A stretch of DNA of 64,000 nucleotides from the sequence record MK327941.1, one strand, 5' to 3'. Position numbers and translations under genes: made by a program. The notes under the pieces are model-generated. The model saw nothing but the letters and a program-made list of their open reading frames with translations, was not told the DNA's origin and made no database searches. This document shows, piece after piece, positions 18,544-38,878 of this stretch (within the stretch, counting starts at the first letter, position 1; each line of letters begins with the position of its first letter). Origin of the DNA: Escherichia phage vB_EcoM_G37-3.

Positions 18544-19364
18544 TTAGTCACCTCACCGAAAATTGTAAATTGTCTACGATTCTCATCGCCGAAAGATTCT
18601 ACTACGTCGTTTACCTTGACGCAAGTCCCGCGCGGTAAAATTACTTCACATTCGCAAGGGTTCCATGCAATTGACCCAACAACAAAACCTTTATGATCTT
18701 TTACGTCAATTACCCATGATACATTACAAGAATGTTGCATCTTTCCGGTCATTGATTCATATCGATTCTCACAATAAAGGCTAGTGCTGTTTGATAGCCA
18801 TCCTCCAAAGATGATTGGTGTCATGCTGGTAGATACAAAGTTTTTAAAGGTAAACTCCTTATCTTCAATGATACGCTCTATTGTCTGAATGTCAAGATGT
18901 TGACCGCGATAAAGAGTACCGTTTAACTTTTCGGTTTTATCCATGACGCAATCCATCAAATCGACAATCTCTGATATCTCATCGGTCATGTCTTCTTCCC
19001 CTAAGAGAGCACCATTTACCCATTCGTATTGTTCAGACACATAATCACAGATTGCATTATATTCTGCTGGGGTTATGTTGTTATGTTTGTAATGTTTGAA
19101 TACATTATCTCCAAAGTCTTCGGAGTGTACTTCATACATCACATTAATGATTTTCTTGACAAATCCATAATCTTGTGTCTCACGCTCAAGGAAGCGGATA
19201 ACCTTCACATAATCATCAAAGTTAATCTGATCGCTAATCATCTCAGTGATCATGTAACCATTAATCCCCTCAATGTCATATGTTTCAATATAATTGTCCA
19301 TACGTTCCATCATTGATTCGCGTGATTCTTCCGAAAGACGAAAATCCTGTAATTTCTTGAACAT
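18540..19364 (-). CDS. ADP-ribosyltransferase (Mod/Alt-like)
   Basis: R-S-E triad context: TLYRGQ, FVSTS, CECEVILP; own early-type promoter upstream. Confidence 0.65.
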   Translation of the reverse strand: MFKKLQDFRLSEESRESMMERMDNYIETYDIEGINGYMITEMISDQINFDDYVKVIRFLERETQDYGFVKKIINVMYEVHSEDFGDNVFKHYKHNNITPAEYNAICDYVSEQYEWVNGALLGEEDMTDEISEIVDLMDCVMDKTEKLNGTLYRGQHLDIQTIERIIEDKEFTFKNFVSTSMTPIIFGGWLSNSTSLYCENRYESMTGKMQHSCNVSWVIDVKDHKGFVVGSIAWNPCECEVILPRGTCVKVNDVVESFGDENRRQFTIFGEVTK

Positions 19365-19385
19365 TTTAAACCTCCCATATAACAG

Positions 19386-19418
19386 AAAACGGGGCTAGTA
19401 TAAAACTAGTCCCCGTTT
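19386..19418 (-). terminator. Hairpin terminator after alt, overlapping the downstream early promoter
   Basis: CGGGGCTAGTATAAAACTAGTCCCCG inverted repeat flanked by A/T runs. Confidence 0.45.
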
Positions 19419-19425
19419 GAGTCAA
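19397..19425 (-). promoter_or_regulatory. Early sigma70-type promoter with stem-loop (PeSL-like)
   Basis: Minus strand TTGACT-N17-TATACT; hairpin overlaps spacer; RBS GGGAGG follows. Confidence 0.55.
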
Positions 19426-19442
19426 CCATTATTTCTTAAAAA

Positions 19443-21494
19443 TTACATTTTAAATTTATCTGGCATTGCGTCTACAGATACCAGATCAGCGATAAGCTGA
19501 CGTAGAGTTGCCTTATCTGCTTTCTTACGTTCGGTTTTAGCTTCGCTAATGAAGCTGGAGAAAGACAGGTCAGAAGCAGGTTTAACAACACCTTCACGGA
19601 TGAATGCATCGCCGTCCGCGATCATCTCGCCAGATTCTTGTAATGCTGCCAGTTCATTTTTGTTCATAATATGTGCCTCAATGTAATAAGTTTCTTGTGA
19701 ATCCGTCGATGCCGTAGCACGAGTTACCGTATCAAAGGATAACACAACACCGCGAGGAAGTAAAATCTCGCATTCTTTGTAAGCAAATGCTTTGTTACCT
19801 ACTGGCAAGACAGGGATGTTTTCCGCGCCAGCAATGGAGAAAGCAACATTAGCGCCACCTTCACCGCGAGAGCCAGCCATAGAATCAACACCAGCAACGG
19901 CACTAGCCACGTTTGCATTCCAGCCGCCAAAAATGTTAGGTGCAAGGGAAGTGCTCACATAGTTTTTAAAGTAAAACGCTTTTTGCTTACGTGCAGTTTC
20001 CCACATTTGCGACCGGAAGTCCATACCACGATACAGAATAGTACCAGGATCAAGTTTAACGCCATAGTTAGAGAAGGCATTATCCAGTGCATCGCACATC
20101 TTGACCAATTCTTCTGGATCTGCGATTCCCTCAAACTCTTCCAGCTTACGGTCGGTTAGGAAGTTGTTCATATTGATGTATGCTGCATCGGCATATTCGC
20201 TCAACACAAAACCTTCCGCGCCTGGTAGATCAAGATCAATATCTGCCATCATTTCACCCATGTTGCTAGCAATTGCTTCAAACATACCGGAAGCAACATT
20301 ACGTAGGGCATCGGTTTTAATCTGGGTGATATGACTACGCAGCATTTCAGCTTTTACATCTGCTGGCATAGACTGGTCTACTCGATCCATTGCCAGGGCG
20401 GTGATCTTGTTTTCGAATACTTCCTCGCTCATGATTTCTTTTAAGCGTTTGATTGATGCTGCGATAACTTCCGCAGACAATGGATCATATTGATCCTGAA
20501 CTTTTACCAGTTCGCTTACTGCGTATTTTGCATCGGCTTCGCTTTCAAAAATAGTACGCATGAAACCATAGCGAGTGATAATATCACTTGTCCAGTCATT
20601 CAGAGAACGGGCGGTTGAACGTTCTAAGGCTTGACGATCAATCAGAGTATTAAACTGTTTCTTAGGTTCGGCTTCGGTGATATCTTCTTCCGGTTTAAGA
20701 TTAATTTTTTCTGGATGATTCACATAGTCGCTGTTATAGGTCGCTTGAGTTTTCAGCATTTCTTCTTTAGTCAAACGAGATTTAGCCGCTACGCGTTGTT
20801 CCGCTTCCGCGTTTCGTTCTTCTTCTGACACCAGACTAGCCGCATACGCCTCATCTTTAGTCAGAGATTCACCAGTAGCCTTAGATACCCAGCGATCACC
20901 TAAATCACTTTCTACTTTAGTGAACAAGGAATCATCAAGTTTAATCCCTTTAATCTTATCAATCGCCATACCGCGACGCTTGACAACAACTAAAGCGATC
21001 TTTTTGCTGGTCATTACTTCCTGCTGGAATACTTCAAACTTCGGTGTACGACGCACCAAACGCTCTATAACGCGCTTAACCAGTTCGGTCTTACCTTTCA
21101 TGCGGGATACGTTAAAACGGAACATAACAGCGTCTAATTGCGCTTTACGGGCTGTTTCCATAACCACATCAAAAGCACTTGCCATAACTGCAATCGGGTT
21201 ATCGCCTAGACCATTTTTAAGCTGTACAATACGACCGCTTTTGTTCATTTCGCACAGTACAACATGCGCTGTCTTGTCACCCATACGAATGATTTTAGGT
21301 GTTTTGTTGGTGAAGTTACAAAGACGGACAATCACATCTTTATCGCGTGTCTGTACTGCAAAAAGCTGTTTAGGATTCTGCTTAGGCTTTAAGCACTGTA
21401 CCGGAGCAATACTACCAAAGTTTTCTTCCTCTTCCGTCAACAGCCATTTCTCGAAAGATTCAATCATTAGGTCGTCGATTTCTAAGTTAAACAT
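19443..21494 (-). CDS. alt: Alt ADP-ribosyltransferase (packaged)
   Basis: 683 aa (T4 Alt 682 aa); C-terminal ILYRGMDF, YVSTS, ECEILLPRG. Confidence 0.8.
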   Translation of the reverse strand: MFNLEIDDLMIESFEKWLLTEEEENFGSIAPVQCLKPKQNPKQLFAVQTRDKDVIVRLCNFTNKTPKIIRMGDKTAHVVLCEMNKSGRIVQLKNGLGDNPIAVMASAFDVVMETARKAQLDAVMFRFNVSRMKGKTELVKRVIERLVRRTPKFEVFQQEVMTSKKIALVVVKRRGMAIDKIKGIKLDDSLFTKVESDLGDRWVSKATGESLTKDEAYAASLVSEEERNAEAEQRVAAKSRLTKEEMLKTQATYNSDYVNHPEKINLKPEEDITEAEPKKQFNTLIDRQALERSTARSLNDWTSDIITRYGFMRTIFESEADAKYAVSELVKVQDQYDPLSAEVIAASIKRLKEIMSEEVFENKITALAMDRVDQSMPADVKAEMLRSHITQIKTDALRNVASGMFEAIASNMGEMMADIDLDLPGAEGFVLSEYADAAYINMNNFLTDRKLEEFEGIADPEELVKMCDALDNAFSNYGVKLDPGTILYRGMDFRSQMWETARKQKAFYFKNYVSTSLAPNIFGGWNANVASAVAGVDSMAGSRGEGGANVAFSIAGAENIPVLPVGNKAFAYKECEILLPRGVVLSFDTVTRATASTDSQETYYIEAHIMNKNELAALQESGEMIADGDAFIREGVVKPASDLSFSSFISEAKTERKKADKATLRQLIADLVSVDAMPDKFKM

Positions 21495-21534
21495 TTTATA
21501 TCCTCTAGTTGATAACCTATAAACCTATATTTAT

Positions 21535-21563
21535 GAAAACGGGGCTTAACGCCCCCTTTTTAT
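21535..21563. terminator. Hairpin terminator
   Basis: GGGGCTTAACGCCCC hairpin with flanking T/A runs. Confidence 0.45.
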
Positions 21564-21775
21564 TATAATGCACCATCGAGCAATTGCTCTAAGGTGTATC
21601 CTGAATAGTCTTTTTCAATCAGGATATATTTTCCTACTCGTTTAATACAACCGCGCATTTCAACATATTCTGCGTAGTTGATGGTGCGAGTTGTTCCATC
21701 TTCTAGCAAAGCAGTACCGATTTCGTTAATGCGGTCATAAGTTACGTAGGTAATGATGATTTCGATGTTAGCCAT
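21563..21775 (-). CDS. Small hypothetical early protein
   Basis: Start at ATG 21775 (MANIEII...) with AAGGAG RBS downstream of promoter 21810-21838. Confidence 0.55.
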   Translation of the reverse strand: MANIEIIITYVTYDRINEIGTALLEDGTTRTINYAEYVEMRGCIKRVGKYILIEKDYSGYTLEQLLDGAL

Positions 21776-21809
21776 TTGATACTCCTTAGTAGTTCGTTTC
21801 GGTATGTGT

Positions 21810-21838
21810 ATTATAGGGGATCGATGATCCCCTGTCAA
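21810..21838 (-). promoter_or_regulatory. Early promoter with palindromic spacer (PeSL-type)
   Basis: Minus strand TTGACA-GGGGATCATCGATCCCC-TATAAT, A-tract upstream. Confidence 0.7.
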
Positions 21839-21846
21839 CAACTTTT

Positions 21847-22365
21847 TTAGTTATTTTTTAATTGCTCATCTTGCAATAGGGCAATCACATGCTGGCGATG
21901 TTCTTCCGATTGAGGCACACCGAAAAAGTTTGTTTTGTAGAAATACTCTAATCGGTCTTCTCGTGTGCTCTCTTCCATCATGATCGCGGGTAGTCCGAGA
22001 TTTCGGAAACGTCGCTTTTCTGCTGGCGTAAAATCACTGTAATACAACATAGAATCATCATTACCAGCAATGCTAAACTCATCTTTCATAAAGGAGAATA
22101 TTGCGTTTAAACGCTGTTTACCGTCCACGATTTCGATCTCATAGCGAGAGCCATCATCAATCTTAGCCATTGCGATAGCACCAACCGGAAAATCATTAAT
22201 CAGGTTTTCGATAAACATACGTTTGTTTTCGGTGTCCCATACCAAAGGACGCTGATAATCTGGGTTCATGTTGATATATCCATCTTCTAACCACGCCTCA
22301 TAAACAGAGATGACAAAGTTTTTAGTATTGGTATAGTAACGGCGTTTAGGCGTTAAACGGTTCAT
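21847..22365 (-). CDS. DUF262 / ParB-like nuclease-domain protein
   Basis: DYQRPLVWDTENK...VDGKQRLNAI resembles the DUF262 (GmrSD N-terminal) DGQQR motif; start ATG 22365 with CAGGAGA RBS. Confidence 0.5.
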   Translation of the reverse strand: MNRLTPKRRYYTNTKNFVISVYEAWLEDGYINMNPDYQRPLVWDTENKRMFIENLINDFPVGAIAMAKIDDGSRYEIEIVDGKQRLNAIFSFMKDEFSIAGNDDSMLYYSDFTPAEKRRFRNLGLPAIMMEESTREDRLEYFYKTNFFGVPQSEEHRQHVIALLQDEQLKNN

Positions 22366-22366
22366 G

Positions 22367-22699
22367 TTATAGTCTCCTGAATGGATCATCACGTAAATCA
22401 ATATCTTTTAAGAACTCATCCCATGAATGGCGGATATTGTTCTTAATTCTCCAGATAAGCGCAGGGATTGAACGCTCTCCCATCTGGAAGTATGGATCAT
22501 ATGATCCGTATGCCCAATATGCTACTACAATTCCACAATCAGAGCAATAGTATTCTATTTCACTTGCTGGCGACCAAAGTCCATCAATATGATCGGTGAT
22601 CTTGCTTTCGATGTTATGGCTATGACAATCAGGGCAACGGATGCAATGACCTTGTTTATCGTAATTTGACGTTAGCGAATACTTAAACAATCTCATCAT
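22367..22699 (-). CDS. Zinc-finger protein (hypothetical)
   Basis: CIRCPDCHSH...CSDC, two CxxC pairs. Confidence 0.5.
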   Translation of the reverse strand: MMRLFKYSLTSNYDKQGHCIRCPDCHSHNIESKITDHIDGLWSPASEIEYYCSDCGIVVAYWAYGSYDPYFQMGERSIPALIWRIKNNIRHSWDEFLKDIDLRDDPFRRL

Positions 22700-23412
22700 A
22701 GATCCTTATTGGCTTCAAATACTGCCTTTGCGAATCCTCGCGGGGTAAGTGACCTTATAGTCTTTGTTTTCGTTCCTTTCCCGCCTAGCTTAGAATGCTG
22801 TTTACTGTACCCTTTATTAATCTGCAAAGGTTTCTTTTCTGGCATCATAAAGCCTTGTCCGGTCCATAAGCAAGTCTTTTTCGGGTACATATCACGGGCG
22901 GCAATATACTCAGGAAACGTAGGATGCTTATCATCTTCCGGCAAATAACCGCCATATTCCCACGGATGAAACATATAATCAGGCTTACGCCACATGCTAG
23001 AGATAACGCTTACAGGATTCTCTATCATGTAGGGAACTCCTAGCCATTCACCCAAATAAGCGGTTATTTTAGCTGCCCGTACATCATGAACTTGAATCAA
23101 TGGTCCTTGTTCTCGTTTCTTTCGTTCAAAGTGCGCAGCGCCACTAACAGCTAAATTGGTGCACGGTGGGAATGCAAAGATAATATCCGGTTTCCCCCAT
23201 TCAAGGTCCATTGCTCTTTCCAGCCAGTTCAAATCAATCCATGTGTTTACATAGGTAATGTTTGGATGTTCAAATCTGGTATTATACTTTTTGTATGTGC
23301 CGTGGTCGCCATCATCAGCATTAAAGCAGATCACCTTATGACCTGCTTTAGCCCATTCTAGCCCCATTATCCCCGATCCGTCAAAGTTACAGAATATTAA
23401 TTTTTGTTTCAT
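22696..23412 (-). CDS. C5-cytosine methyltransferase-like protein (catalytic core only)
   Basis: Motif I-like FCNFDGSG, motif IV-like FPPCTNLAVSGA, motif VI-like MIENP; no evident target-recognition domain. Confidence 0.45.
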   Translation of the reverse strand: MKQKLIFCNFDGSGIMGLEWAKAGHKVICFNADDGDHGTYKKYNTRFEHPNITYVNTWIDLNWLERAMDLEWGKPDIIFAFPPCTNLAVSGAAHFERKKREQGPLIQVHDVRAAKITAYLGEWLGVPYMIENPVSVISSMWRKPDYMFHPWEYGGYLPEDDKHPTFPEYIAARDMYPKKTCLWTGQGFMMPEKKPLQINKGYSKQHSKLGGKGTKTKTIRSLTPRGFAKAVFEANKDL

Positions 23413-23654
23413 ATACGCCCCTTTAATCCAACACAGATTTTAGAAGGTTCTTTGCCGTGCCACATTAAGTAAAGTCCGTTAATGCGGCCTTGTTTTGTAT
23501 ATGATTCTTTTCTGATCTTCTTATAGTGTCGTGTTTCCTCAGCCGATTGTTTAGAATACCAATCATAAAGGAAGATGAACAAAGGCCACCCATTAGCGGC
23601 CTTAATGCAGTTATTCAAAAATTCCTTATTGCGTTTAATTAATTTTCTTTTCAC
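23409..23654 (-). CDS. Hypothetical protein
   Basis: 81 aa, overlapping-stop coupling with neighbours. Confidence 0.5.
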   Translation of the reverse strand: MKRKLIKRNKEFLNNCIKAANGWPLFIFLYDWYSKQSAEETRHYKKIRKESYTKQGRINGLYLMWHGKEPSKICVGLKGRI

Positions 23655-23902
23655 GCTGCCCCCATTGGTTTGATAGTAACAGAATCTAAAAGACCTTTGT
23701 TAGCCAGTTCGCGGCAAGTTTTCAGATCCGCAACTTCCCAACCAGCCGCAATCAGGTTATCAATCAGGCTGTTAGCAACTTCTTCGCTCATGAAAGAGCA
23801 CTGTTTGCCGATGGTGTAGCGTACACGCTGTAATTTCAGTTTACGGAAGCCTTTAACGTTCAGGTCTTTAGCGATTTTCTTTGCGGTTTCGATGTTAGCC
23901 AT
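23651..23902 (-). CDS. Hypothetical protein
   Basis: 83 aa, first gene after promoter 23943-23971. Confidence 0.5.
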   Translation of the reverse strand: MANIETAKKIAKDLNVKGFRKLKLQRVRYTIGKQCSFMSEEVANSLIDNLIAAGWEVADLKTCRELANKGLLDSVTIKPMGAA

Positions 23903-23942
23903 TGTTTGATTCTCCTAAGTGGTATCTCGTCTTGATGGTTGT

Positions 23943-23971
23943 ATTGTAGGGGAGTTATCCTCCCCTGTCAA
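23943..23971 (-). promoter_or_regulatory. Early promoter with palindromic spacer (PeSL-type)
   Basis: Minus strand TTGACA-GGGGAGGATAACTCCCC-TACAAT. Confidence 0.65.
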
Positions 23972-23985
23972 CACTTTTTATAAAA

Positions 23986-24153
23986 TTATTTGTTAATTTC
24001 TGGTGCGTTGCTAGGATAGTAACCTTCTTTAACACCCAGATATTTTGCAACCATCCCTACAATCTTCTGTGCTACTACAATGTCAAATTTCAGATAATCT
24101 TCGCCGTGGGTTTCAATGATATATGCTTCACATGCTGCTTTAGTCTCGAACAT
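23986..24153 (-). CDS. Small hypothetical protein (55 aa), paralog of 27246-27413
   Basis: AGGAGA RBS; about 90 percent nucleotide identity with second copy. Confidence 0.5.
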   Translation of the reverse strand: MFETKAACEAYIIETHGEDYLKFDIVVAQKIVGMVAKYLGVKEGYYPSNAPEINK

Positions 24154-24186
24154 TTTGATTCTCCTATTTCGTTTCGTTATGTGTGT

Positions 24187-24215
24187 ATTATAGGGGATCT
24201 CCCGATCCCCGTCAA
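24187..24215 (-). promoter_or_regulatory. Early promoter with palindromic spacer (PeSL-type)
   Basis: Minus strand TTGACG-GGGATCGGGAGATCCCC-TATAAT. Confidence 0.6.
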
Positions 24216-24229
24216 CAACTTTTTTAAAA

Positions 24230-24511
24230 TTATTCGTGATTAGTTTCGATGTTGTGCATTTTGCACCAGTTCAGCCAATCACCCAGATCCTGATAGTTAA
24301 TGCTTTTATCTGCTGCCATCGTTTTTGTCTTGATACCCATATGTGCGTTATGAGTAAGCATTTTTACAGTGAACTCAATTTTATCACCTTTAGCTTTAAC
24401 ATCAACCAGTTTGGTCCACTGGCTACCAGCGCCGCGAATGTTCATACCAACGATGTTTCCGATGTATGCTTCTTTGTTTTTCAGGATTTCGGTTGCTTTG
24501 ATGAATTTCAT
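24230..24511 (-). CDS. Hypothetical protein
   Basis: 93 aa, GGAGA RBS. Confidence 0.5.
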   Translation of the reverse strand: MKFIKATEILKNKEAYIGNIVGMNIRGAGSQWTKLVDVKAKGDKIEFTVKMLTHNAHMGIKTKTMAADKSINYQDLGDWLNWCKMHNIETNHE

Positions 24512-24581
24512 TTTTGATTCTCCAGTTCGTTTCGGTATGTGTGTATTATGCTATGTTCTTACTTTGGTGTCAACAACTTTT

Positions 24582-24851
24582 TTAGATATTTTCAGAAATA
24601 AATTTTAAAACTTGACGTAAATGTTTCTCATCTTTGATAGTCGCCGGAAGTTCTTCTTTTACTTCCTGTGCAAGATAGATATTTCCGTTCCAAGTGAAAG
24701 ATCCGTCTTCGTTTACGCGATAGCTGAACATCCACTCGCAATCATTTTCGATTTCATATACACACAGAAGGGTGTAATCGTTAAAGCTATTGATTTCAAG
24801 GTCGAAGCCGTGACGTTTTGCAAAGTTGGTAGTGGTTTTAGTCAGAGCCAT
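24582..24851 (-). CDS. Hypothetical protein
   Basis: 89 aa, AGGAGA RBS. Confidence 0.5.
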   Translation of the reverse strand: MALTKTTTNFAKRHGFDLEINSFNDYTLLCVYEIENDCEWMFSYRVNEDGSFTWNGNIYLAQEVKEELPATIKDEKHLRQVLKFISENI

Positions 24852-24924
24852 TGTTTGATTCTCCTAAATGGTATCTCGTTTCGATGTGTGTATTATGCTA
24901 TAGGCCGGATCTGGTGTCAATGCC

Positions 24925-24954
24925 TTTTTTAAAAAAGCCGACACTAAGGTCGGC
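24925..24954. terminator. Hairpin terminator
   Basis: GCCGACACTAAGGTCGGC flanked by T6 and A6. Confidence 0.55.
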
Positions 24955-24962
24955 TAATAAAA

Positions 24963-25271
24963 TCATTTAGACAAGTAATCATTCTGTGCAATACGGTCGG
25001 CGTATGCTGGTGTTATGTCAATCGCCAGCACTTTAACGCGTGCTTTCTTGCGACCTGGGTTTTCTCGTAACCAGTGCTCATGACCGTGAACATTTTTATA
25101 CTTTGATGCTTCTTCAAATGTACGGATCGGACCTGGGTAATCAGCGTAAAGGATCTCTAGGTCTTCGGTGATGTAAAAATATACATCGTAATTACTGTTC
25201 TCTAGTTTAAGCAGAGAGTTGCGAAATTGTGGTAAATTCTCGCGGGTAAATTCAACTACAAGATTTTTCAT
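24963..25271 (-). CDS. HxHW-family small protein, member 1
   Basis: HGHEHWLRENPGRKKARVKVLAIDITP. Confidence 0.55.
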   Translation of the reverse strand: MKNLVVEFTRENLPQFRNSLLKLENSNYDVYFYITEDLEILYADYPGPIRTFEEASKYKNVHGHEHWLRENPGRKKARVKVLAIDITPAYADRIAQNDYLSK

Positions 25272-25321
25272 AGTGATATCCTCATTCAGATAGATTAAAA
25301 GGGGGCTTAACGCCCCGTATA

Positions 25322-25609
25322 TTAAAACAGTCCTTCCTGTACACCGTAGTAGAGTTCATCGCTGATAATTTCATTAATGCGACGGTGTGCATATTCCTGA
25401 TTTGCGAAGTTATCAGCAAGTTCTACTTTAGTTTCGCCGTCATGAGTCCATTTAGTGATAACTTTACCATCTGCAAATTTGAAGTTGAACTCTTTAGCTA
25501 CTGCATCGCGTACCAGACGTGCGAACTTGTTGTTACGGATTGCATTATCGGTTTCGTGTGCAGCGTGAGCGAATTTGTTAACTTTCAGAGTGATAGTAAT
25601 GTATGCCAT
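25322..25609 (-). CDS. Hypothetical protein, paralog of 28851-29162
   Basis: Shared AKEFN.K core with second copy. Confidence 0.5.
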   Translation of the reverse strand: MAYITITLKVNKFAHAAHETDNAIRNNKFARLVRDAVAKEFNFKFADGKVITKWTHDGETKVELADNFANQEYAHRRINEIISDELYYGVQEGLF

Positions 25610-25655
25610 AATTTGATTCTCCTAGTTAGAAAGTGTATCTCGTTTCGATGGGGAT

Positions 25656-25684
25656 ATTATGCTATATCCCCGATCCGGTGTCAA
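25656..25684 (-). promoter_or_regulatory. Early promoter with inverted repeat flanking the -10
   Basis: Minus strand TTGACA-N17-CATAAT with GGGGATAT / ATATCCCC arms. Confidence 0.55.
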
Positions 25685-25690
25685 CACTTT

Positions 25691-25969
25691 TTATAAAATA
25701 ATTTTTTGATATTTTTCTATGATGTTCGTGTAAGTCACATCAACCGCTAGCACCGTTGCTTCGAATCCACCGTTTAGCCAATGGCTATGATCATGATCGT
25801 GAAAGAAACCTAGACCAGTACGAAGACCTTCTTTATATTCTGCGCGTACATTCAGTTTGTCGTCGATAAACAGATAAAACCATGAATTTTTACTAGGATT
25901 GATGATACAACCTTTCAGATTAGGGAGAATATCACGACTAAGAATAAACTTATCACCTACTTTGAGCAT
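25691..25969 (-). CDS. HxHW-family small protein, member 2
   Basis: HDHDHSHWLNGGFEATVLAVDVT; start at internal ATG. Confidence 0.5.
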   Translation of the reverse strand: MLKVGDKFILSRDILPNLKGCIINPSKNSWFYLFIDDKLNVRAEYKEGLRTGLGFFHDHDHSHWLNGGFEATVLAVDVTYTNIIEKYQKIIL

Positions 25970-25983
25970 AATATTTTCCTCAC

Positions 25984-26292
25984 TTATAAAGTTTGACCGT
26001 TGTTTTTCGCGTAATGCTGAATGCGTGCTTGATCTGCTTCCGCTGGTGATAGATTCCATGCGATCACTACAACTTCTGACGCATCATGATCATTATCACT
26101 TACCCAATGATTATGATTCATACAATTGTTTGCTATCGCGTGAGCAAATGATCTCATTACCGGAGACGTATAATCATAGTAACGGATTTTCAGATTTTCA
26201 TCAACGTACAAGTAGATCGTATACGGCTTATATTCAGTAACCAGTAACAGACAGTTACGCAATTCTGGGAAAATCTTTTTAGTTAATTTCAT
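25984..26292 (-). CDS. HxHW-family small protein, member 3
   Basis: NHNHWVSDNDHDASEVVVIAWN; start at ATG 26292. Confidence 0.5.
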   Translation of the reverse strand: MKLTKKIFPELRNCLLLVTEYKPYTIYLYVDENLKIRYYDYTSPVMRSFAHAIANNCMNHNHWVSDNDHDASEVVVIAWNLSPAEADQARIQHYAKNNGQTL

Positions 26293-26293
26293 T

Positions 26294-26512
26294 TTATAAT
26301 CCTCGGTCGCGGCTATAGTACACGGTACGCCATACAATTTCATGTTTCGTGTCGCTCCAGCACACGATCTCATTTACTCTTAAATCTTTGTTATCAACAA
26401 AAGATGAACATTGTGACGCTTCTTTCATCATTTTATCTGCTGTTTTCTCATCAAATACAGCACAGATTTCTTTATACACTCGATAATCTTTGAATTGACT
26501 CTGGATACTCAT
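26294..26512 (-). CDS. Hypothetical protein, paralog of 26515-26730
   Basis: SQFKDYRVYKEICAVFDEKTADKMMKEASQCSSF versus SKFKEYKAYQQILRVYEPEFAEKMMEDASKCPSF. Confidence 0.45.
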   Translation of the reverse strand: MSIQSQFKDYRVYKEICAVFDEKTADKMMKEASQCSSFVDNKDLRVNEIVCWSDTKHEIVWRTVYYSRDRGL

Positions 26513-26514
26513 AA

Positions 26515-26730
26515 TTAACACCAATCAAGAGTTTTTGAGAAAACCTCTATCCATTGTTGAGTATATGCGGTTTCTTTCCATGATACAATACCAGTAGAAT
26601 AATGGTTTTTGTTTCCAGAAAAGGACGGGCATTTTGATGCATCTTCCATCATCTTTTCGGCGAACTCTGGTTCGTATACCCGCAAAATCTGTTGATATGC
26701 TTTGTATTCTTTAAATTTGCTCATAATCAT
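26515..26730 (-). CDS. Hypothetical protein, paralog of 26294-26512
   Basis: Tandem paralog pair. Confidence 0.45.
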   Translation of the reverse strand: MIMSKFKEYKAYQQILRVYEPEFAEKMMEDASKCPSFSGNKNHYSTGIVSWKETAYTQQWIEVFSKTLDWC

Positions 26731-26989
26731 TCACTACCTTATCAGCTTCTTTTGTTGTTTTTACATCAACTGCGATAACCCGTAAAGGTTCGTCATGGTT
26801 CCACCAATGATCGTGAATATCGGCTTGTGATTTATCACCAAAGGAATCACGAATATCATTTTTACATTTATAGCTAATGTGACCGTCATAGTCAACATAA
26901 AGGTAATTATCGAAAATCGGCGTTTTTAAGATCATACCGAAAAATCTTTCTTTGTGTGTCTTATCCAGTGTTGCAGTAATTCGCATCAT
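26711..26989 (-). CDS. HxHW-family small protein, member 4
   Basis: IHDHWWNHDEPLRVIAVDVKT. Confidence 0.5.
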   Translation of the reverse strand: MMRITATLDKTHKERFFGMILKTPIFDNYLYVDYDGHISYKCKNDIRDSFGDKSQADIHDHWWNHDEPLRVIAVDVKTTKEADKVVNDYEQI

Positions 26990-27001
26990 AATATATTCCT
27001 C

Positions 27002-27181
27002 TTAGAAAGGGATGGTCATTTCTTGAGCTTGTACATTCTCGTTAGGATTAAACTTCATCCAACCGATATTGTCTACCAGCATATGTACATTTTTATCATA
27101 TCCTACGTGAGTAGTCAACACTAAATGTGCTTTACCTTCAACGATGATTTCCATGTACTTCTGAACTTCGATAGCTTTCAT
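27002..27181 (-). CDS. Small hypothetical protein (59 aa)
   Basis: ATG with GGAGA RBS. Confidence 0.4.
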   Translation of the reverse strand: MKAIEVQKYMEIIVEGKAHLVLTTHVGYDKNVHMLVDNIGWMKFNPNENVQAQEMTIPF

Positions 27182-27245
27182 TTTGATTCTCCGTTTGTTG
27201 TCTTGATGGGAGTATCTTACTACTCCCTTTAATCATTGTCAACGA

Positions 27246-27413
27246 TTATTTGTTAATTTCCGGTGCGTTGCTTGGATAGTAGCCTTCTTTAACACCCAGA
27301 TATTTTGCAACCATTCCGGTGATCTTCTGTGCTACTACGATATCGAATTTCAGGTAGTCTTCACCGTGGTTTGCTACAATGTATGCTTCGCATTCTGCTT
27401 TAGTCTGGAACAT
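27246..27413 (-). CDS. Small hypothetical protein (55 aa), paralog of 23986-24153
   Basis: Near-identical second copy. Confidence 0.5.
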   Translation of the reverse strand: MFQTKAECEAYIVANHGEDYLKFDIVVAQKITGMVAKYLGVKEGYYPSNAPEINK

Positions 27414-27447
27414 TTTTGATTCTCCTATATCTCGTTGGTATGTGTGT

Positions 27448-27476
27448 AGTATAGGGGATCACCGATCCCCTGTCAA
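27448..27476 (-). promoter_or_regulatory. Early promoter with palindromic spacer (PeSL-type)
   Basis: Minus strand TTGACA-GGGGATCGGTGATCCCC-TATACT. Confidence 0.65.
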
Positions 27477-27484
27477 CAACTTTT

Positions 27485-27775
27485 TTATTCTTTATACGCA
27501 TATTTCATAAATTTGTCTGCTACTTCATCGGCATGTTCCGATTCTACGCCGGATTCGAGAACAATAGCAAGGTCGGTTTCGTCGTGACCTTCGTACCAGT
27601 GATTATGTGTGTCGTTTGAATCAATATAGAATTTATCACCTTCGTAAGTTCGAGCAAATACATCTAAATTCTCGTCGATGTAAAAGATCCAATCTTCATA
27701 AAGAATAACCGTATTAGCAAGGTTCTTATTACCTTCAACGAAAGGTTCGGCTACAAACAAATCAGTACGTTCCAT
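27485..27775 (-). CDS. HxHW-family small protein, member 5
   Basis: THNHWYEGHDETDLAIVLE. Confidence 0.5.
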   Translation of the reverse strand: MERTDLFVAEPFVEGNKNLANTVILYEDWIFYIDENLDVFARTYEGDKFYIDSNDTHNHWYEGHDETDLAIVLESGVESEHADEVADKFMKYAYKE

Positions 27776-27790
27776 AGTATTTTCCTCAAA

Positions 27791-27952
27791 TTAAGAAAAA
27801 GCGTTGAAAACACCCGCCAACACAACTACGTTAGCGATAAGGCTTAAAAAGCATTTCTTGATACTTTCAGTGCAGATACCAATACTGGCAGGAATTACAC
27901 CGATCACGATAGCATAAAGAATAACTGCGATTTCTTGAAATACACCGTTCAT
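27791..27952 (-). CDS. Small membrane protein (53 aa)
   Basis: Hydrophobic ORF MNGVFQEIAVILYAIVIGVIPASIGI... Confidence 0.35.
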   Translation of the reverse strand: MNGVFQEIAVILYAIVIGVIPASIGICTESIKKCFLSLIANVVVLAGVFNAFS

Positions 27953-28008
27953 AATATTATCCTCAATTTGTGGGAGAGTATTACCCTCCCGATTATTGTT
28001 ATACTACA

Positions 28009-28311
28009 TTACGCAAAATGGCGTGTCAATACTTCTTTTGCTGTTCCGCTAAGATTCTCGATCTCTCCTGGCATAACATCAACCGCCAGAACTTCTACAA
28101 CATCCTCTGATCCTAACCAGTGAGTATGACCTTTGTAGAACTTGATATCCCATTTATCGCTATCGCTAGCCCACCACACATCACCGTCTATAAAGTTGAT
28201 GTAAAGCACACTACGACACATTGAATTAGTTACTTTCAATACTGCGCCTTTCATCTCTTCCACGGTATGGTCTTCCATTTTGAAGACCTCGCCTACCTTA
28301 ACTTTTGCCAT
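28009..28311 (-). CDS. HxHW-family small protein, member 6
   Basis: GHTHWLGSEDVVEVLAVDVMP; start at ATG 28311. Confidence 0.5.
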   Translation of the reverse strand: MAKVKVGEVFKMEDHTVEEMKGAVLKVTNSMCRSVLYINFIDGDVWWASDSDKWDIKFYKGHTHWLGSEDVVEVLAVDVMPGEIENLSGTAKEVLTRHFA

Positions 28312-28312
28312 G

Positions 28313-28579
28313 TTACATGCTCCGAATATGTTTAGATGCATCTTCCAGTTCGTCGATAGTGACACTGTGAGCCAGTAAGTGTACTGGTTGTGGTTCTTCA
28401 CCTTCCATAGTATTGATCAGATGACCGTTTCCTGGGTGGAATGTATCGTTGCCGTTCCAAATAGCATACACATCATCTTCTGTTACGTAGATAATAAGTC
28501 CAATCGGTGATTCTGGTAATTGAAAAATTTTACCCACTGCATCTTTGCGATTGTTTACGATATCTTTTACTGTCTTCAT
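28313..28579 (-). CDS. HxHW-family-related small protein, member 7 (divergent)
   Basis: FHPGNGHLINTMEGEEPQPVHLLAHSVTIDE. Confidence 0.4.
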   Translation of the reverse strand: MKTVKDIVNNRKDAVGKIFQLPESPIGLIIYVTEDDVYAIWNGNDTFHPGNGHLINTMEGEEPQPVHLLAHSVTIDELEDASKHIRSM

Positions 28580-28598
28580 TTAGTTACCTCTCGTTAAA

Positions 28599-28778
28599 TT
28601 ACATCACAATCACGCCAGCCGTTGAAAGTTGATGTTTCAACTGAGCATTTTCTGCTACTGTCAAATCAATGATTTCTTGTGACGCTGCAATCATATAGCC
28701 ATTGGTGATATTGTTTTGCATCAGTTCAATGGTTTCTTCGTTGTAGCGGATTTTAGCGATGATTTCGTTGAAGTTCAT
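28599..28778 (-). CDS. Small hypothetical protein (59 aa)
   Basis: ATG with GGAGA RBS. Confidence 0.4.
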   Translation of the reverse strand: MNFNEIIAKIRYNEETIELMQNNITNGYMIAASQEIIDLTVAENAQLKHQLSTAGVIVM

Positions 28779-28812
28779 GTTTGATTCTCCTAGTTCGTTT
28801 CGGTATGTGTGT

Positions 28813-28842
28813 ATTATAGGGGAGTTTAACCTCCCTTGTCAA
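28813..28842 (-). promoter_or_regulatory. Early promoter with palindromic spacer (PeSL-type)
   Basis: Minus strand TTGACA-AGGGAGGTTAAACTCCCC-TATAAT. Confidence 0.6.
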
Positions 28843-28850
28843 CAACTTTT

Positions 28851-29162
28851 TTAAAGTTTTTCCATGATAACGGTCATAATTACATCTTCTGCGCGGGCGG
28901 TCAGATTATCAGCGTCAGCATGTGGGCGGTTGGTTGTTACAGAGATAACACCGTTGCGCACTGGTTTGATATTGATATCAAGATGATCCGCGAAACGTTC
29001 GCCAGTTACAGAATGAATTTTGGTGTTAAATTCTTTTGCCAGTGCCTTGCGAACTTCACGAATCAGGATAGCGTTTTTCAGTTGGTTCTCCGCGCTCATG
29101 GTCTTCTGGGTGTTCATGGTTCCGTCGAAGTCAATCATTGGCAGCGTTACGATGTATTTCAT
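28851..29162 (-). CDS. Hypothetical protein, paralog of 25322-25609
   Basis: Shared AKEFN.K core. Confidence 0.5.
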   Translation of the reverse strand: MKYIVTLPMIDFDGTMNTQKTMSAENQLKNAILIREVRKALAKEFNTKIHSVTGERFADHLDINIKPVRNGVISVTTNRPHADADNLTARAEDVIMTVIMEKL

Positions 29163-29207
29163 TTTTGATTCTCCGTTTAAGAAAGTGTGTTTCGTTTTGA
29201 TGTGTGT

Positions 29208-29236
29208 AGTATAGGGGATACGTGATCCCCTGTCAA
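29208..29236 (-). promoter_or_regulatory. Early promoter with palindromic spacer (PeSL-type)
   Basis: Minus strand TTGACA-GGGGATCACGTATCCCC-TATACT. Confidence 0.65.
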
Positions 29237-29249
29237 CAACTTTTTTGAA

Positions 29250-29594
29250 TTATTTTTTCATGAGCTTAATGGCTTCTTCCATAGCCAGCACATTTCGATA
29301 GTTAGGGTATCGTGTTAGATCGTCATACATTCGCTTAAGGGTGGAAACTTCCTCAAACTCTGGGTTTTCTAGATACAGTTGAACAAATTGTTTCTCTACC
29401 ATCTCGGCTTTTAGCTTGTCTGCTTGTTCCTGTTCATATGATTTCGTTGGACCCAACACCAACAAAATGATAAAGGTGATCAACGGGCTAATGATCAATG
29501 ATAGGATAACATAACCGATAACGCTACGGTTTAAACGGCTTGCGTACATGCCTACCAGGAAAACAAAAAGGATATAGATAAACAGAAAGAACAT
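29250..29594 (-). CDS. Membrane protein (hypothetical)
   Basis: Hydrophobic N-terminal half. Confidence 0.5.
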   Translation of the reverse strand: MFFLFIYILFVFLVGMYASRLNRSVIGYVILSLIISPLITFIILLVLGPTKSYEQEQADKLKAEMVEKQFVQLYLENPEFEEVSTLKRMYDDLTRYPNYRNVLAMEEAIKLMKK

Positions 29595-29601
29595 ATAATG
29601 G

Positions 29602-30075
29602 TTACTCCTTATTTTCGCGCTCGTACTTTTCGAAATAAAATTCTACTGGCTGGTCATGAATTGACAGCAAGCCAAAGCGTTTAGCCGCTCGCAATCCCAT
29701 ATTGCGCTGAATGTACTTCTGGAAGTTCTCGCGTATACACTTACGCCAGTATTCTAAGCCCATACAGCTTTTATAAAGATTGCATTGCACACACGCCGGA
29801 TTCATGTTATCAAGTATATCATGTTCCGGTTTATGCATTCCTACAACCTTATACTTCCACGATCCATCATCATTACGGGCAATTCGTCCATTTTCATCAT
29901 AGACTACCTTTGAGCGTCGCAATACTGGTTTGATGTGGTCTGCGTGCCAGCGATCCCCTAGTTCCTCGCCACAATAGGCACAACGTCCACCATATTTCAT
30001 TTTCAGGATCTGGCGTTGCTCTTTCTTTGACAATTTTTTAGGTTTAGGGGCTTTCGCCCCTTCATTATCACACAT
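29602..30075 (-). CDS. HNH endonuclease
   Basis: CAYCGE...HADHIKP...CVQCN motif set. Confidence 0.65.
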   Translation of the reverse strand: MCDNEGAKAPKPKKLSKKEQRQILKMKYGGRCAYCGEELGDRWHADHIKPVLRRSKVVYDENGRIARNDDGSWKYKVVGMHKPEHDILDNMNPACVQCNLYKSCMGLEYWRKCIRENFQKYIQRNMGLRAAKRFGLLSIHDQPVEFYFEKYERENKE

Positions 30076-31570
30076 CGAATACCTCTTTTACTGTATTTGC
30101 AGTGGTCTTGTCGTAGCGAATACGTTTGATGATCGGGAGAAATAAAGAGAACTCCGGTTCATCTTCTTTACGTGATTTGCTGCGGATATACCCGTTGCAT
30201 GTCATCTCAATGACTTTTCCAATCAGGTTATGACGGTCAGCCCATAACATTTCTCGGTCGAGTTCATTTCGACGATCGAACGGAATTACACGTTCAATAC
30301 CATCATCACCTTTTTCGGTTGTAGTGTCGGTTAATCCCGATCCGGTGTTAGTCATCATTCGTCCGCACGCACTACGGACAGTAAAACCGCCTACCTTATT
30401 GGGGTCTTTACTATGCGGATATACATCAACAATTTCCGCGTCGAAGTCAATCACTTCTTTAAATTTAACCTGATCTTTACTACGGCGATCTTCAAATACA
30501 CCATGTAAATTTTTAAGGATAATACCTTCTAAGCCCATGTTTACATAGCGATGATATACTTCGCGAGCTTCATCTATATTGTTAACTACAGTGTTTTCGA
30601 TTATCTGAACACGAGGATCGTTAAGTTCTTCAACAATCTGTTTTAGTTCTTCGAATCGATCTTTATATTGCTTCGTTGCTTTCTCGTTTCCGTAATACAC
30701 ATCACGGTCGATAACATCCCAGACAGTATAAACAATACATTGGGCTTCTTCTTTTGGAATAGTTCCTTTAAGTGATTTGTTGAGGATACCATTTCCGGTC
30801 TGACGGTCTGCAACAACGGATTCTTTTACTGCTTCCGCTACTGGCGTTAATGGCATTTCCTCTTCTTCAAATATCCATGACAGAGTACCATCATAAACGC
30901 TTTCAACGAAGTTCTGCGCTGGTGTTTGCGAAAGGGTAGGCATATATACCAATTCGCCATCTAGAACAATTCCACGGCCTCGTAGACGCTCTAAAACCGC
31001 AAACAAATCATCAAGTCCCTGATAGGTATTACCTGAACGGGTATAGATTGCTAATGTTTCCCCGTCAATATCAGCCATACCACGAGCACCATCGCTTTTA
31101 AGTTGTGCATACGCCGGATACTTGATATTAGCAATAGCCTTATCAGAATATGACGATGCAAGGTGACACGGTTGCTGGGGGATCAGTTTCTTCCATACCT
31201 TGTTTGCAGTGGTAGCGGAACAACCACATTCCAGATCACGATTCAGGACCATCATTGCAACTTTAGCATCATCTTCTGACAAGCAAGTCAGAGTATCGGT
31301 AACTAGCTGTAATGCTGCGTTACCAGTTACTTGACGCGTGGCAAGTTTATTTTTAAAGACCTGTAATGCACCGGATAAAGACAATACAGACGAATAACGC
31401 GATGGTTTATCGTATTTCTTTACGCCAAACGTAACCTGTTTGCAATATGCCAGATAAAAGCATTCTTTCAGTGTTTCATTGCTTGCAGATTCTTTCAGGA
31501 TCTTTTCTTTCAGCGATGTTTTGTCTGTTGCTGCAAGCTGGTTAATGATATTAAGAATTGACATTTTCAC
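30068..31570 (-). CDS. 30: DNA ligase gp30
   Basis: 500 aa; KADGAR lysine-adenylation motif; extended similarity to T4 ligase. Confidence 0.9.
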   Translation of the reverse strand: MKMSILNIINQLAATDKTSLKEKILKESASNETLKECFYLAYCKQVTFGVKKYDKPSRYSSVLSLSGALQVFKNKLATRQVTGNAALQLVTDTLTCLSEDDAKVAMMVLNRDLECGCSATTANKVWKKLIPQQPCHLASSYSDKAIANIKYPAYAQLKSDGARGMADIDGETLAIYTRSGNTYQGLDDLFAVLERLRGRGIVLDGELVYMPTLSQTPAQNFVESVYDGTLSWIFEEEEMPLTPVAEAVKESVVADRQTGNGILNKSLKGTIPKEEAQCIVYTVWDVIDRDVYYGNEKATKQYKDRFEELKQIVEELNDPRVQIIENTVVNNIDEAREVYHRYVNMGLEGIILKNLHGVFEDRRSKDQVKFKEVIDFDAEIVDVYPHSKDPNKVGGFTVRSACGRMMTNTGSGLTDTTTEKGDDGIERVIPFDRRNELDREMLWADRHNLIGKVIEMTCNGYIRSKSRKEDEPEFSLFLPIIKRIRYDKTTANTVKEVFDV

Positions 31571-32030
31571 CTCGTTTTGTTAAACGTTCACGAATATCAT
31601 TGAGGATACTACAAAATTCCGATTCAGTCAATATAGTCTTTAACGGATCAGTTCCACCTATGCTATGACGTAATTTCTTATTTCCTGTAGCGAGTAATGC
31701 TTTACAAAATTCTGGGTTATTCCGTGCCATCGTAACAAATGCCAGATGTACCAGTCTGTAATAATGCTCACTCATTCGATGAATCGGGCGACCCTGAAAA
31801 TATAACATGTGATTCTCAATCTTTTCAGTTCTTCCGGTTCTTTTTGCTTTGCCACCGTGCATCAAAAAGATTTCTCTTTGTCTCTGAGGGTTCTTAAATC
31901 TTAGCCCCTGTAAAAATCCTTCTGTGCTGTTAATATCGCAACCAAATAGACGGAATGGTCTTTTATTGAAATTACTCAATTCACCAGATGGATAAGGTCC
32001 ACCCGCATAGATATCAATTTCAGAAGTCAT
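31551..32030 (-). CDS. NADAR-domain protein (YbiA-like)
   Basis: ELSNF...PF...NSTEGFLQGLRF matches the NADAR signature (E. coli YbiA: DFSNF...PI...PTSEHYFQAQKF). Confidence 0.55.
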   Translation of the reverse strand: MTSEIDIYAGGPYPSGELSNFNKRPFRLFGCDINSTEGFLQGLRFKNPQRQREIFLMHGGKAKRTGRTEKIENHMLYFQGRPIHRMSEHYYRLVHLAFVTMARNNPEFCKALLATGNKKLRHSIGGTDPLKTILTESEFCSILNDIRERLTKRGENVNS

Positions 32031-37593: not shown

Positions 37594-37992
37594 TTAACTT
37601 TCCAGAATATCGCGAGCTTCGTTACGCTCCTTGATGATTTTCAGGACAAATTCCAGTTTTTCTTTGTTTAGTGTTCCGTTTTCCATTGCTTCTTTGACGG
37701 TAAACACTCCGCCACCTTGCCCGTATACAGTGACAGTGATTTCACCTAACATCGTGGTATGAAAACCGCCAATTTTCGGTGATTCGAAAGAAACAATTAC
37801 CTCGCGGACAGTATTACCGTCGTTGATTTCTGAGAGGGTAATGTCGTTTTTGTAGGCGGTTGCTTTAACCATACGGATCAGCATAGTCTGATCTGGGGAG
37901 ATGGTCATTTTGTCCATTGCATGTTGCAATGCAGCGTAACCGAAAACTTTAACGAAGTCCAGAACGTCTTTGCGAGTTTGAAATTTAATCAT
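37594..37992 (-). CDS. Hypothetical protein
   Basis: 132 aa downstream of early promoter. Confidence 0.55.
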   Translation of the reverse strand: MIKFQTRKDVLDFVKVFGYAALQHAMDKMTISPDQTMLIRMVKATAYKNDITLSEINDGNTVREVIVSFESPKIGGFHTTMLGEITVTVYGQGGGVFTVKEAMENGTLNKEKLEFVLKIIKERNEARDILES

Positions 37993-38015
37993 CTTGATAC
38001 TCCTTAGTTGTTTTG

Positions 38016-38044
38016 GTATGGGAGTATCTTACTACTCCCGTGAT
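38016..38044 (-). promoter_or_regulatory. Early promoter, second PeSL class (inverted repeat spanning the -10)
   Basis: Minus strand TTGACA-N17-TAAGAT within GGGAGTAGTAAGATACTCCC palindrome. Confidence 0.6.
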
Positions 38045-38063
38045 ATGCTGTCAACTGCTTTTT

Positions 38064-38212
38064 TATGCAACCGCAAACATCAACATTTGAACATTCTTGG
38101 CTGTCTGGCTTTCAAAGTTCTGACATTCTTTGATAATGTCCTCTACTTTCTCGCCGGAGATCTCCGCGTAAGTTTCGATTGCCATTTTAAGTACCGCGTC
38201 AAAGTTGTTCAT
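38064..38212 (-). CDS. Small hypothetical protein (49 aa)
   Basis: ATG start; ORF MNNFDAVLKMAIETYAEISGEKVEDIIKECQNFESQTAKNVQMLMFAVA. Confidence 0.3.
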
Positions 38213-38279
38213 TTGATTCTCCTTAAAGTGTATTTCGTTTCGATGGGGGTATATTACTACCCCCGTTTCATGCTGTCAA

Positions 38280-38498: not shown

Positions 38499-38567
38499 TT
38501 TGATTCTCCTTTGTTTCGTTTCGATGGGAGTATCTTACTACCCCCGTTATTCAGTGTCAACTACTTT

Positions 38568-38786: not shown

Positions 38787-38846
38787 ATGTTCCTCCGTTT
38801 CGATGTGCGTATTATGCTATGGCAAGATCAGATTGTCAACACCCAA

Positions 38847-38878
38847 TAACAAAAAAGTCGCCACGATGGGCGACTTTG
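38847..38878 (-). terminator. Rho-independent terminator
   Basis: AGTCGCCCATCGTGGCGACT hairpin followed by T6. Confidence 0.6.

Follow-up and report, generated by a model that had tools for sequence, protein, structure and literature searches.

Repeated early-promoter cassettes between alt and gp30 of Escherichia phage vB_EcoM_G37-3 very probably correspond to the promoter-early stem-loops of RB49-type phages

We analyzed a 64,000-nucleotide stretch of Escherichia phage vB_EcoM_G37-3 (sequence record MK327941.1; the whole stretch is called the window, and positions count from its first letter), in which a series of repeated early-promoter cassettes occupies the minus strand of 21800-29245. 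Judged from their sequence, these cassettes are very probably, with a probability that we put at about 0.85, the already published promoter-early stem-loops (PeSLs), correctly rediscovered here at their type locus. PeSLs were defined by Arbiol et al. (2010; Genome Biol Evol 2:140, PMC2839356) in phages phi1 and RB49, which have 52 and 51 copies, mainly in hyperplastic regions and upstream of ORFans. They are composed of an AT-rich tract, a sigma-70 consensus promoter, a polyG/polyC stem-loop, and a Shine-Dalgarno (SD) sequence with an ATG, and the stem-loop occurs in five positional subclasses (PMC2839356). Every sequence-level feature that defines a PeSL is present in the cassettes of the window, where all five positional subclasses occur, and so is the comparative feature, recombination.

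Matching 21800-29245 to phage records assigned the window to Krischvirus, the RB49-like T4-type coliphages: 63 phage records matched, those that covered the interval well were all Krischvirus, and the top match was Escherichia phage FL15 (96.6% identity, 100% query coverage). In a wider query (19300-31700), the interval was bordered on one side by alt (19443-21494), whose product is an RNA polymerase ADP-ribosyltransferase, and on the other by the DNA ligase gene gp30 (30068-31570). It is orthologous to the stretch from open reading frame (ORF) 185 to ORF211/212 of RB49 and phi1, the hyperplastic region alt-gp30, and its genes run on the minus strand throughout. Compared with its relatives, the isolate lacks ORF186, ORF192, and ORF195/196, and carries ORF211 and an ORF at 28313-28579.

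Several cassettes, each named here by the position of the first T of its -35 on the minus strand, could be equated with individual published elements. Cassette 29236 is identical to RB49 PeSL211/210 at 96 of 96 bases, cassette 27476 matches PeSL206/205 except for two bases in and adjoining the -10 and a few more at the extreme 5' edge, and cassette 24215 corresponds to phi1 PeSL193/191. Thus, the resemblance to RB49-type PeSL cassettes that the initial annotation of this sequence had pointed out is borne out by the genus, the orthologous locus, and a full-length match. The published experiments were done on elements of this same locus. The stem-loop of PeSL211/210 lowered expression of a downstream lacZ about as strongly as rrnB T1, and the promoter of PeSL206/205 yielded ~13,000 Miller units (PMC2839356). 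The RB49 early-promoter consensus is reported to be in agreement with 5'-end mapping (PMC1524935), and the GEC-3S record has annotated promoters at orthologous sites. Identity to the assayed RB49 elements supports the prediction that the cassettes of the window act in vivo as promoters and as terminators or attenuators.

The cassettes have a common order of modules: a stop codon, AAAAAAGTTG, TTGACA, 17-18 nt, a TATAAT-like hexamer, ACACACAT(A)CCGAAACGA..., (A)GGAGAATCAAA(A), and ATG. The A-tract, either AAAAAAGTTG or TAAAAAGTG, precedes TTGACA in almost every copy, and in an alignment of 14 copies TTGAC, parts of the -10, the leader, and GGAG-A-TCAA were invariant or nearly so. The 3' end carries the SD and the start codon, and the ORFs that follow have no Pfam family; Pfam returned no family for ten small ORFs driven by cassettes, one sub-threshold PROCT match being disregarded, and Rfam returned zero families at the gathering threshold over the whole window. 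Eleven cassettes lie in 21800-29245 (21838, 23971, 24215, 24573, 24920, 25684, 27242, 27476, 28029, 28842, and 29236) and eight further family members elsewhere in the window (19425, 38054, 38279, 38560, 38839, 41467, 46329, and 47554), about 19 in total, so that the 'at least 14' minus-strand promoters with an upstream A-tract of the initial annotation were real and undercounted. A relaxed pattern, TTGAC[AG]-N16-18 followed by TATAAT, TATACT, TACAAT, CATAAT, TAAGAT, or TAATAT, matched 26 times on the minus strand and once on the plus strand of the window, compared to 0.35 matches per strand in 100 dinucleotide shuffles. This excess, together with the strand bias, excludes chance as the origin of the promoter repeats. 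A consensus promoter scan of the interval likewise found 11 sites with 10-12 of 12 matches, on the minus strand only; weak matches of 9 of 12 were no commoner than expected by chance.

We compared breakpoints in gene content by aligning 19300-31700 to 13 relatives. In at least seven cases, the gain or loss of genes left one chimeric cassette at the junction, to which both flanks align. ORF186 is missing in the window, PHB13, PTE-Eco09, and JK32, and cassette 21838 is a chimera of the FL15 cassettes that flank this ORF, with an upstream half resembling PeSL187/186 and a leader resembling PeSL186/185. ORF191 is missing in Brandy, JK32, and UPWr_E1 with an 86-bp overlap at the junction, MIZ4 lacks the six genes of 21850-24153 (77-bp overlap), JSE lacks 38071-38208 (90-bp overlap), and PTE-Eco09 lacks 27487-28776, where the junction is chimeric with a crossover in the A-tract/-35. 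Insertions are found at 24230, where RB49 carries ORF192 and JSE a different gene at the same point, and at 24930, between a terminator and the -35, where RB49, Brandy, W115, JK32, and MIZ4 carry ORF195/196. Cassette-flanked gene content, compared with RB49, phi1, and JSE as the initial annotation had proposed, thus differs by one-gene to six-gene indels at cassettes. Inverse PCR by others found mini-circles around ORF192 and ORF210 (PMC2839356).

The crossover position varied from event to event, lying in the A-tract/-35 in PTE-Eco09, between the -10 and the leader at 21838, and upstream of the -35 at 24930, as expected of homologous rather than site-specific recombination. An integron-like site-specific system was rejected on account of the dispersed crossovers and a region devoid of recombinases, in which neither an integrase nor a recombinase gene was found. 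The paralog duplication that had been noted nearby was also recovered: the products of 23986-24153 and 27246-27413 are 89% identical, and similarity of the duplicated unit, an upstream cassette plus its ORF (23986-24226 and 27246-27487), extends from the cassette A-tract to the stop codon. This duplication fits the re-insertion of a cassette-bounded unit.

Hairpins lie in the spacer in seven copies, across the -10 in six (including 19425), upstream of the -35 in three, and downstream of the -10 in one, and two copies have none. Two sequence classes had been proposed, one with a palindromic spacer and one with an inverted repeat spanning the -10 at 27205-27245 and 38016-38560. Both exist, but two classes are too few, as there are also a CATAAT stem type, terminators upstream of the -35, a hairpin downstream of the -10, and hairpin-less copies. 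The spacer class, all of it like the other cassettes on the minus strand, begins with cassette 21838 (21773-21852), whose hairpin GGGGATCatcGATCCCC folds at -12.8 kcal/mol (z -4.7) and which has its -35 at 21838-21833, the spacer GGGGATCATCGATCCCC at 21832-21816, a TATAAT -10 at 21815-21810, the SD GGAGTATCAA, and its ATG at 21775. Cassette 23971 (23900-23990) has the hairpin GGGGAGgataaCTCCCC, a TACAAT -10, and the SD GGAGAATCAAAC; cassette 24215 (24151-24233) has the hairpin GGGGATCgggaGATCCCC and a TTGACG -35 whose final base falls within the stem; cassette 27476 (27411-27490), with the hairpin GGGGATCggtGATCCCC, is orthologous to PeSL206/205 of both RB49 and phi1; cassette 29236 (29160-29252) has the hairpin GGGGATcacgtATCCCC; and cassette 41467 (41405-41480) has the hairpin CGGGGAgaaaTCCCCG and a TTGACG -35. 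Cassette 28842 (28776-28856) has an 18-nt spacer and a weakened 5-bp stem (-9.2 kcal/mol): at 28813-28842 it reads AGGGAGG where its relatives read GGGGAGG, which creates the sole A.C mismatch case among the stems.

In the class that spans the -10, the repeat GGGAGTA-gtaaga-TACTCCC (GGGAGTAgtaagaTACTCCC) is found at 27242 (27179-27250; -10 TAAGAT) and 38054 (37990-38068). Its variants are GGGGGTAgtaataTACCCCC (GGGGGTA/TACCCCC) at 38279 (38210-38293), with a compensatory change from A-T to G-C relative to 38054, and GGGGGTAgtaagaTACTCCC at 38560 (38496-38574), a G.T wobble intermediate. Cassette 25684 (25607-25700), of the CATAAT type, has its own -10-spanning hairpin GGGGATATagcataATATCCCC (-14.4 kcal/mol), with the stem GGGGATAT/ATATCCCC that reads GGGTGTAT/ATACACCC in relatives. 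The promoter downstream of alt, 19425 (19362-19440; TTGACT-17-TATACT), has the -10-spanning hairpin GGGGACTAGttttataCTAGCCCC followed by GTTTTCTG (z -3.7) and has a promoter annotation in the GEC-3S record. Canonical terminators just upstream of the -35 are found at two CATAAT-type cassettes, 24920 (24849-24962; AGCCGACcttagtGTCGGCT and TTTTTT at 24955-24936) and 38839 (38784-38874; GTCGCCcatcGTGGCGAC and TTTTTT at 38874-38851), and a terminator-like CCTTCGGGAAGG with CTTTTTT lies upstream of the -35 of 47554 (47494-47600; leader CATCGAAACAAC). Promoter 28029 (27950-28029; TTGACA-17-TAGTAT) has the hairpin GGGAGggtaatactCTCCC downstream of its -10 and an SD, GAGGATAATATT, that is not of the GGAG type. 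The CATAAT-type cassette 24573 (24509-24590) is hairpin-less, and 46329 (46268-46345), whose leader CATATCGAAACAA is as in the others, has no convincing hairpin.

RNA folding of the embedded hairpins gave -9.2 to -14.4 kcal/mol with z scores of -2.5 to -4.7, and the two canonical terminators of the region folded at ~-11 kcal/mol. Stems of at least 7 bp were found in 10 of 22 promoters compared to 1.2% of random 37-mers from the window, although the copies are paralogous and do not represent independent events. Structures were compared among cassettes from the window, the 13 annotated relatives, and Krischvirus contigs in IMG/VR, which together provided 29 distinct helices. The stem AGGGGATC/GATCCCCT occurred 43 times with seven different loops, the stem remaining constant while the loops drifted, and at least six unrelated stem sequences occupied the same positions. 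Compensatory changes were observed in one pair of the TAAGAT type (AU in eight, GC in three, and GU in one), in three pairs of the CATAAT type that changed on both sides, and in the spacer type (T-A to G-C). These counts are consistent with a selected structure rather than decisive. Internal G.T pairs outnumbered A.C pairs by about 5:1, a difference that was not statistically significant and is suggestive of pairing in sense-strand RNA; G-T pairs are also present in the drawn PeSL stems of PMC2839356. As the embedded hairpin lies upstream of, or overlaps, the predicted start, it should fold only in RNA that was started at the upstream gene, as would suit an insulator between neighboring early units. 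Copies without an embedded hairpin often have a canonical terminator just upstream (24920, 38839, and 47554), which suggests that the function is needed.

A further feature of the cassettes lies at the SD. In 11 cassettes GGAGAAUCAAA resembles the RegB/S1 target of T4-type early mRNAs: its agreement with the consensus GGAGRAYARAA (Durand et al., 2006, PMC1702504) is 10 of 11, the exception being position 8. RB49 encodes a RegB homolog, and its cleavage sites fit the consensus (PMC1702504). The motif GGAG[AT]ATCAA occurs 13 times in the window, each time on the minus strand and in a cassette. This match suggests that each cassette may carry its own RegB shut-off signal.

Together, these observations would fit the following mechanism. 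The cassette would be an intergenic module of 70-100 bp, in which an A-rich, UP-like tract and a near-consensus sigma-70 promoter, as demonstrated for orthologs, would fire on host RNA polymerase right after infection. The G/C-rich hairpin within the promoter would appear only in read-through RNA and would attenuate or terminate the upstream transcript, an effect demonstrated for the sequence identical to 29236, presumed for the other spacer hairpins, and doubtful for those that span the -10. The leader, ending in GGAGAAUCAAA-AUG, would provide a strong SD and a putative RegB/S1 cleavage site that switches early messages off. Finally, the copies appear long and similar enough for phage homologous recombination to delete, insert, and duplicate units of 'cassette plus small ORF', a step supported by the comparative evidence here and by the mini-circle intermediates demonstrated by others.

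Several of our results weigh against this interpretation or narrow it. The proposal that cassettes drive modular gene shuffling stands as far as the single chimeric cassettes at indel junctions are concerned, but only ~10 of 20 distinct breakpoints lie in cassettes, which make up ~10% of the interval, and the other half lie elsewhere, e.g. at 23411/23638, 26509, 28315/28577, and 29615. Furthermore, selection against breakpoints inside genes could partly explain the enrichment at cassettes. The cassettes are thus a major route of gene-content change and not the only one. The covariation statistics were weak: in three hand-built alignments with few distinct related rows, of which the spacer-type alignment mixes two registers, 7 to 85 of 500 shuffles reached the observed percentage of paired cells. 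We therefore relied on a qualitative pattern, in which the stem stays invariant as its loop varies and several stems are unrelated. A terminator scan found none of the embedded hairpins to be terminator-like, as their tails are not a canonical U-tract. The tail after the spacer hairpins is UAUAAUAC, i.e. the -10 itself, made of A and U only, and the tail after the -10-spanning hairpins is AUCAAGAC or AUCGAAAC, with no U-run; termination by the latter class is extrapolated from one assayed spacer-type element and is doubtful. As for RegB, the assignment is drawn from similarity, GGAGAAUCAAA has a C at position 8 where A is preferred, and the contrast between cassette-first genes, 14 of 15 of which have a GGAG-type SD, and operon-internal genes (3 of 15, mostly having a GAGGA-type SD) is overstated, as the copies descend from a common ancestor. 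Given the lack of a U-tract, we rejected the embedded hairpins as canonical intrinsic terminators; true T-run terminators are present alongside the cassettes at 24936-24955, 25302-25316, 21541-21555, and 38851-38874.

The tails and the location of the hairpins bear on a different role in RNA, in which the hairpins would not terminate but would protect the 3' end of the upstream message from 3' exonucleases or serve as processing sites, e.g. for RNase III. We regard this as unlikely, yet as an alternative to be taken seriously. It would accommodate the -10-spanning hairpins without a U-tract and the restriction of the hairpin to read-through RNA, and the lacZ assay (PMC2839356), which recorded reduced downstream expression, cannot alone separate termination from processing or decay. 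However, the assayed element behaved like rrnB T1 (PMC2839356), and at 7-8 bp the stems are short for an RNase III substrate.

It is also conceivable, though we give it little credence, that the hairpins form in DNA as well as in RNA, so that the cassettes would be promoter switches sensitive to supercoiling or replication and structure-directed hot spots of recombination, perhaps modulated through the paired GATC (Dam) sites of the spacer and coupled to RegB via GGAGAAUCAAA. If so, a spacer hairpin would on extrusion destroy the spacing between -35 and -10, and one that spans the -10 would present this hexamer as a single-stranded loop. A proposal that we hold to be very unlikely assigns the palindromes a role in DNA, either as sites for a dimeric phage protein, such as an early-promoter repressor or a recombination factor, or as extruded cruciforms that, once cut or resolved, would act as integron-like sites of site-specific recombination. 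Arbiol et al. themselves raised this possibility (PMC2839356), conservation of the GGGG...CCCC core is strong, GATC returns at positions 4-7 of the spacer in copies with and without a hairpin, and reverse-complement pairs of loops (ACC/GGT and GCC/GGC) suggest some processing, at least now and then, of a hairpin or palindrome in the DNA. Yet five hairpin positions and at least six unrelated stems are hard to square with one sequence-specific protein, the spread of crossovers over the whole cassette is the pattern of homologous recombination, the preference for G.T over A.C favors single-strand sense pairing, and the search of the region for an integrase or recombinase gene was negative.

Least probable of all is that the hairpins are functionless, the palindromes hitch-hiking on strong promoters that were duplicated and homogenized by gene conversion: the copies are clearly paralogous, some family members (24573 and 46329) are hairpin-less, and formal covariation statistics are weak, but stems are invariant where loops vary (one stem with seven loops in 43 copies), compensatory double changes occur along with G.T intermediates, unrelated stems sit in different registers, copies that lack the embedded hairpin often have a canonical terminator just upstream, as though to supply the function by another means, the PeSL211/210 stem-loop was assayed experimentally (PMC2839356), and the same architecture recurs in unrelated viral contigs, where stems of at least 7 bp exceed expectation (9 of 48 compared to 0.8).

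Some observations concern the palindromes as DNA sequence. The loops of the stem AGGGGATC/GATCCCCT include the two reverse-complement pairs named above, where ~0.24 such pairs were expected by chance, and at the PeSL206/205 site phi1 has the loop ACC whereas the window (27448-27476) and RB49 have GGT. Such loops could be explained by a palindrome that flips from time to time or by gene conversion among the copies, and they suggest that flipping might proceed via intrastrand template switching or arm-to-arm recombination. GATC at spacer positions 4-7 was seen in the spacer-hairpin cassettes, often twice (GGGGATCnnnGATCCCC), and in many hairpin-less CATAAT ones (CCAGATC, CCGGATC, and TAAGATC). 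It is over-represented in the whole window (352 compared to 256 in dinucleotide shuffles). Its recurrence in the spacers may reflect function or shared ancestry, and a link to Dam methylation is possible.

Promoters of sigma-70 type with a hairpin in the spacer (G4...C4) were also found outside Krischvirus. In a scan of IMG/VR, the pattern TTGACAGGGG-N9-10-CCCCTA matched 85 stretches, which by a rough estimate is about the number expected by chance for a 16-base pattern, and only the excess of extended stems was informative: 9 of 48 distinct spacers had stems of at least 7 bp compared to the 0.8 expected. They occurred in contigs akin to jumbo phages of enterobacteria (Salmonella phage Munch/7t3 and GAP32), in T4-like Synechococcus cyanophages, and in an unclassified group that repeats TTGACAGGGGAGATTATCTCCCCTAATATT.

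Set beside the PeSLs of RB49 and phi1, the cassettes agree in genus, alt-gp30 locus, architecture (TTGACA-N17-TATAAT and stem-loop), ORFan indels, and chimeric junctions, and differ in nothing essential; the isolate has its own pattern of gene presence and absence and one weakened stem (28842). The RegB-like SD, a putative site recognized from its sequence that departs from RegB/S1 sites by the C at position 8, is not mentioned in PMC2839356, nor are the recurrence of GATC and the reverse-complement pairs of loops. With the PeSL/PmSL elements of other T4-like phages (Comeau et al., 2014, PMC4122927) the cassettes share composite promoter-terminator motifs, hyperplastic regions, and exchange points, but the promoters differ, being TTTACW...TAYWAT in T4/PST and TTGYVH...TAWWAT in KVP40/nt-1 compared to a near-perfect sigma-70 consensus here. 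Like intrinsic terminators, the embedded hairpins are G/C-rich, of similar stability (-9 to -14 compared to -11 kcal/mol), and located directly after a stop codon; unlike them, they are followed not by a U-run but by the UAUAAU -10 hexamer or by AUCAAGAC. Integron cassettes and phage 'morons' are similar in that small genes are mobile as units with their own expression signals. However, the cassettes described here have neither an integrase nor an attC-type site and their crossovers are dispersed over ~80 bp of homology, and, in contrast to morons, the regulatory repeats that flank the genes are themselves the recombination substrate.

Other features of the region were recorded alongside the cassettes. 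A minus-strand operon at 21847-23654 encodes a protein with a GmrSD_N/DUF262 domain (E 4e-20), a zinc-ribbon-like protein, a 238-aa protein that is called a C-5 cytosine methyltransferase in relatives and has no Pfam match here, and a small ORF; MIZ4 lacks this operon and the next two small ORFs, its deletion of 21850-24153 spanning from cassette to cassette. Six small minus-strand proteins of ~90-100 aa (24963-25271, 25691-25969, 25984-26292, 26711-26989, 27485-27775, and 28009-28311) have in common an H-x-H-W motif followed by (V/L)LA(I/V)D(V/I); pairwise BLAST connected four of the six at 26-36% identity, and none of them has a Pfam family. The adjoining small ORFs at 26294-26512 and 26515-26730 are a tandem duplicate with 40% protein identity and without cassette boundaries. 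The ORF driven by cassette 41467 (41241-41405, minus strand) has an in-frame TAG at codon 12 (MTKLKCVAVDF*LADSFVVGDVYDARHDG...); past the TAG its product resembles the protein of 38280-38498, and the ORF could represent a pseudogene or a nonsense allele. The terminator hairpin GGGGCGTTAAGCCCC with its T-run is present twice, at 25302-25316 and at 21541-21555; the latter copy separates ORF185 from alt and, with a T-run on either strand, looks bidirectional.

Nothing in these results is categorically new: genomes deposited since 2010 independently support the PeSL model and show its limit, as about half of the breakpoints lie elsewhere. They would add three refinements to a known element, namely the RegB-like SD, the -10-spanning hairpins without a U-tail, and the reverse-complement pairs of loops. 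If hairpin-in-spacer promoters do extend across jumbo phages, cyanomyoviruses, and the unclassified group, they would represent a general principle of phage design. For the large lytic phages themselves, few concrete mechanisms have been proposed by which small accessory genes can be swapped while the core genome remains unbroken, and PeSLs are among them.

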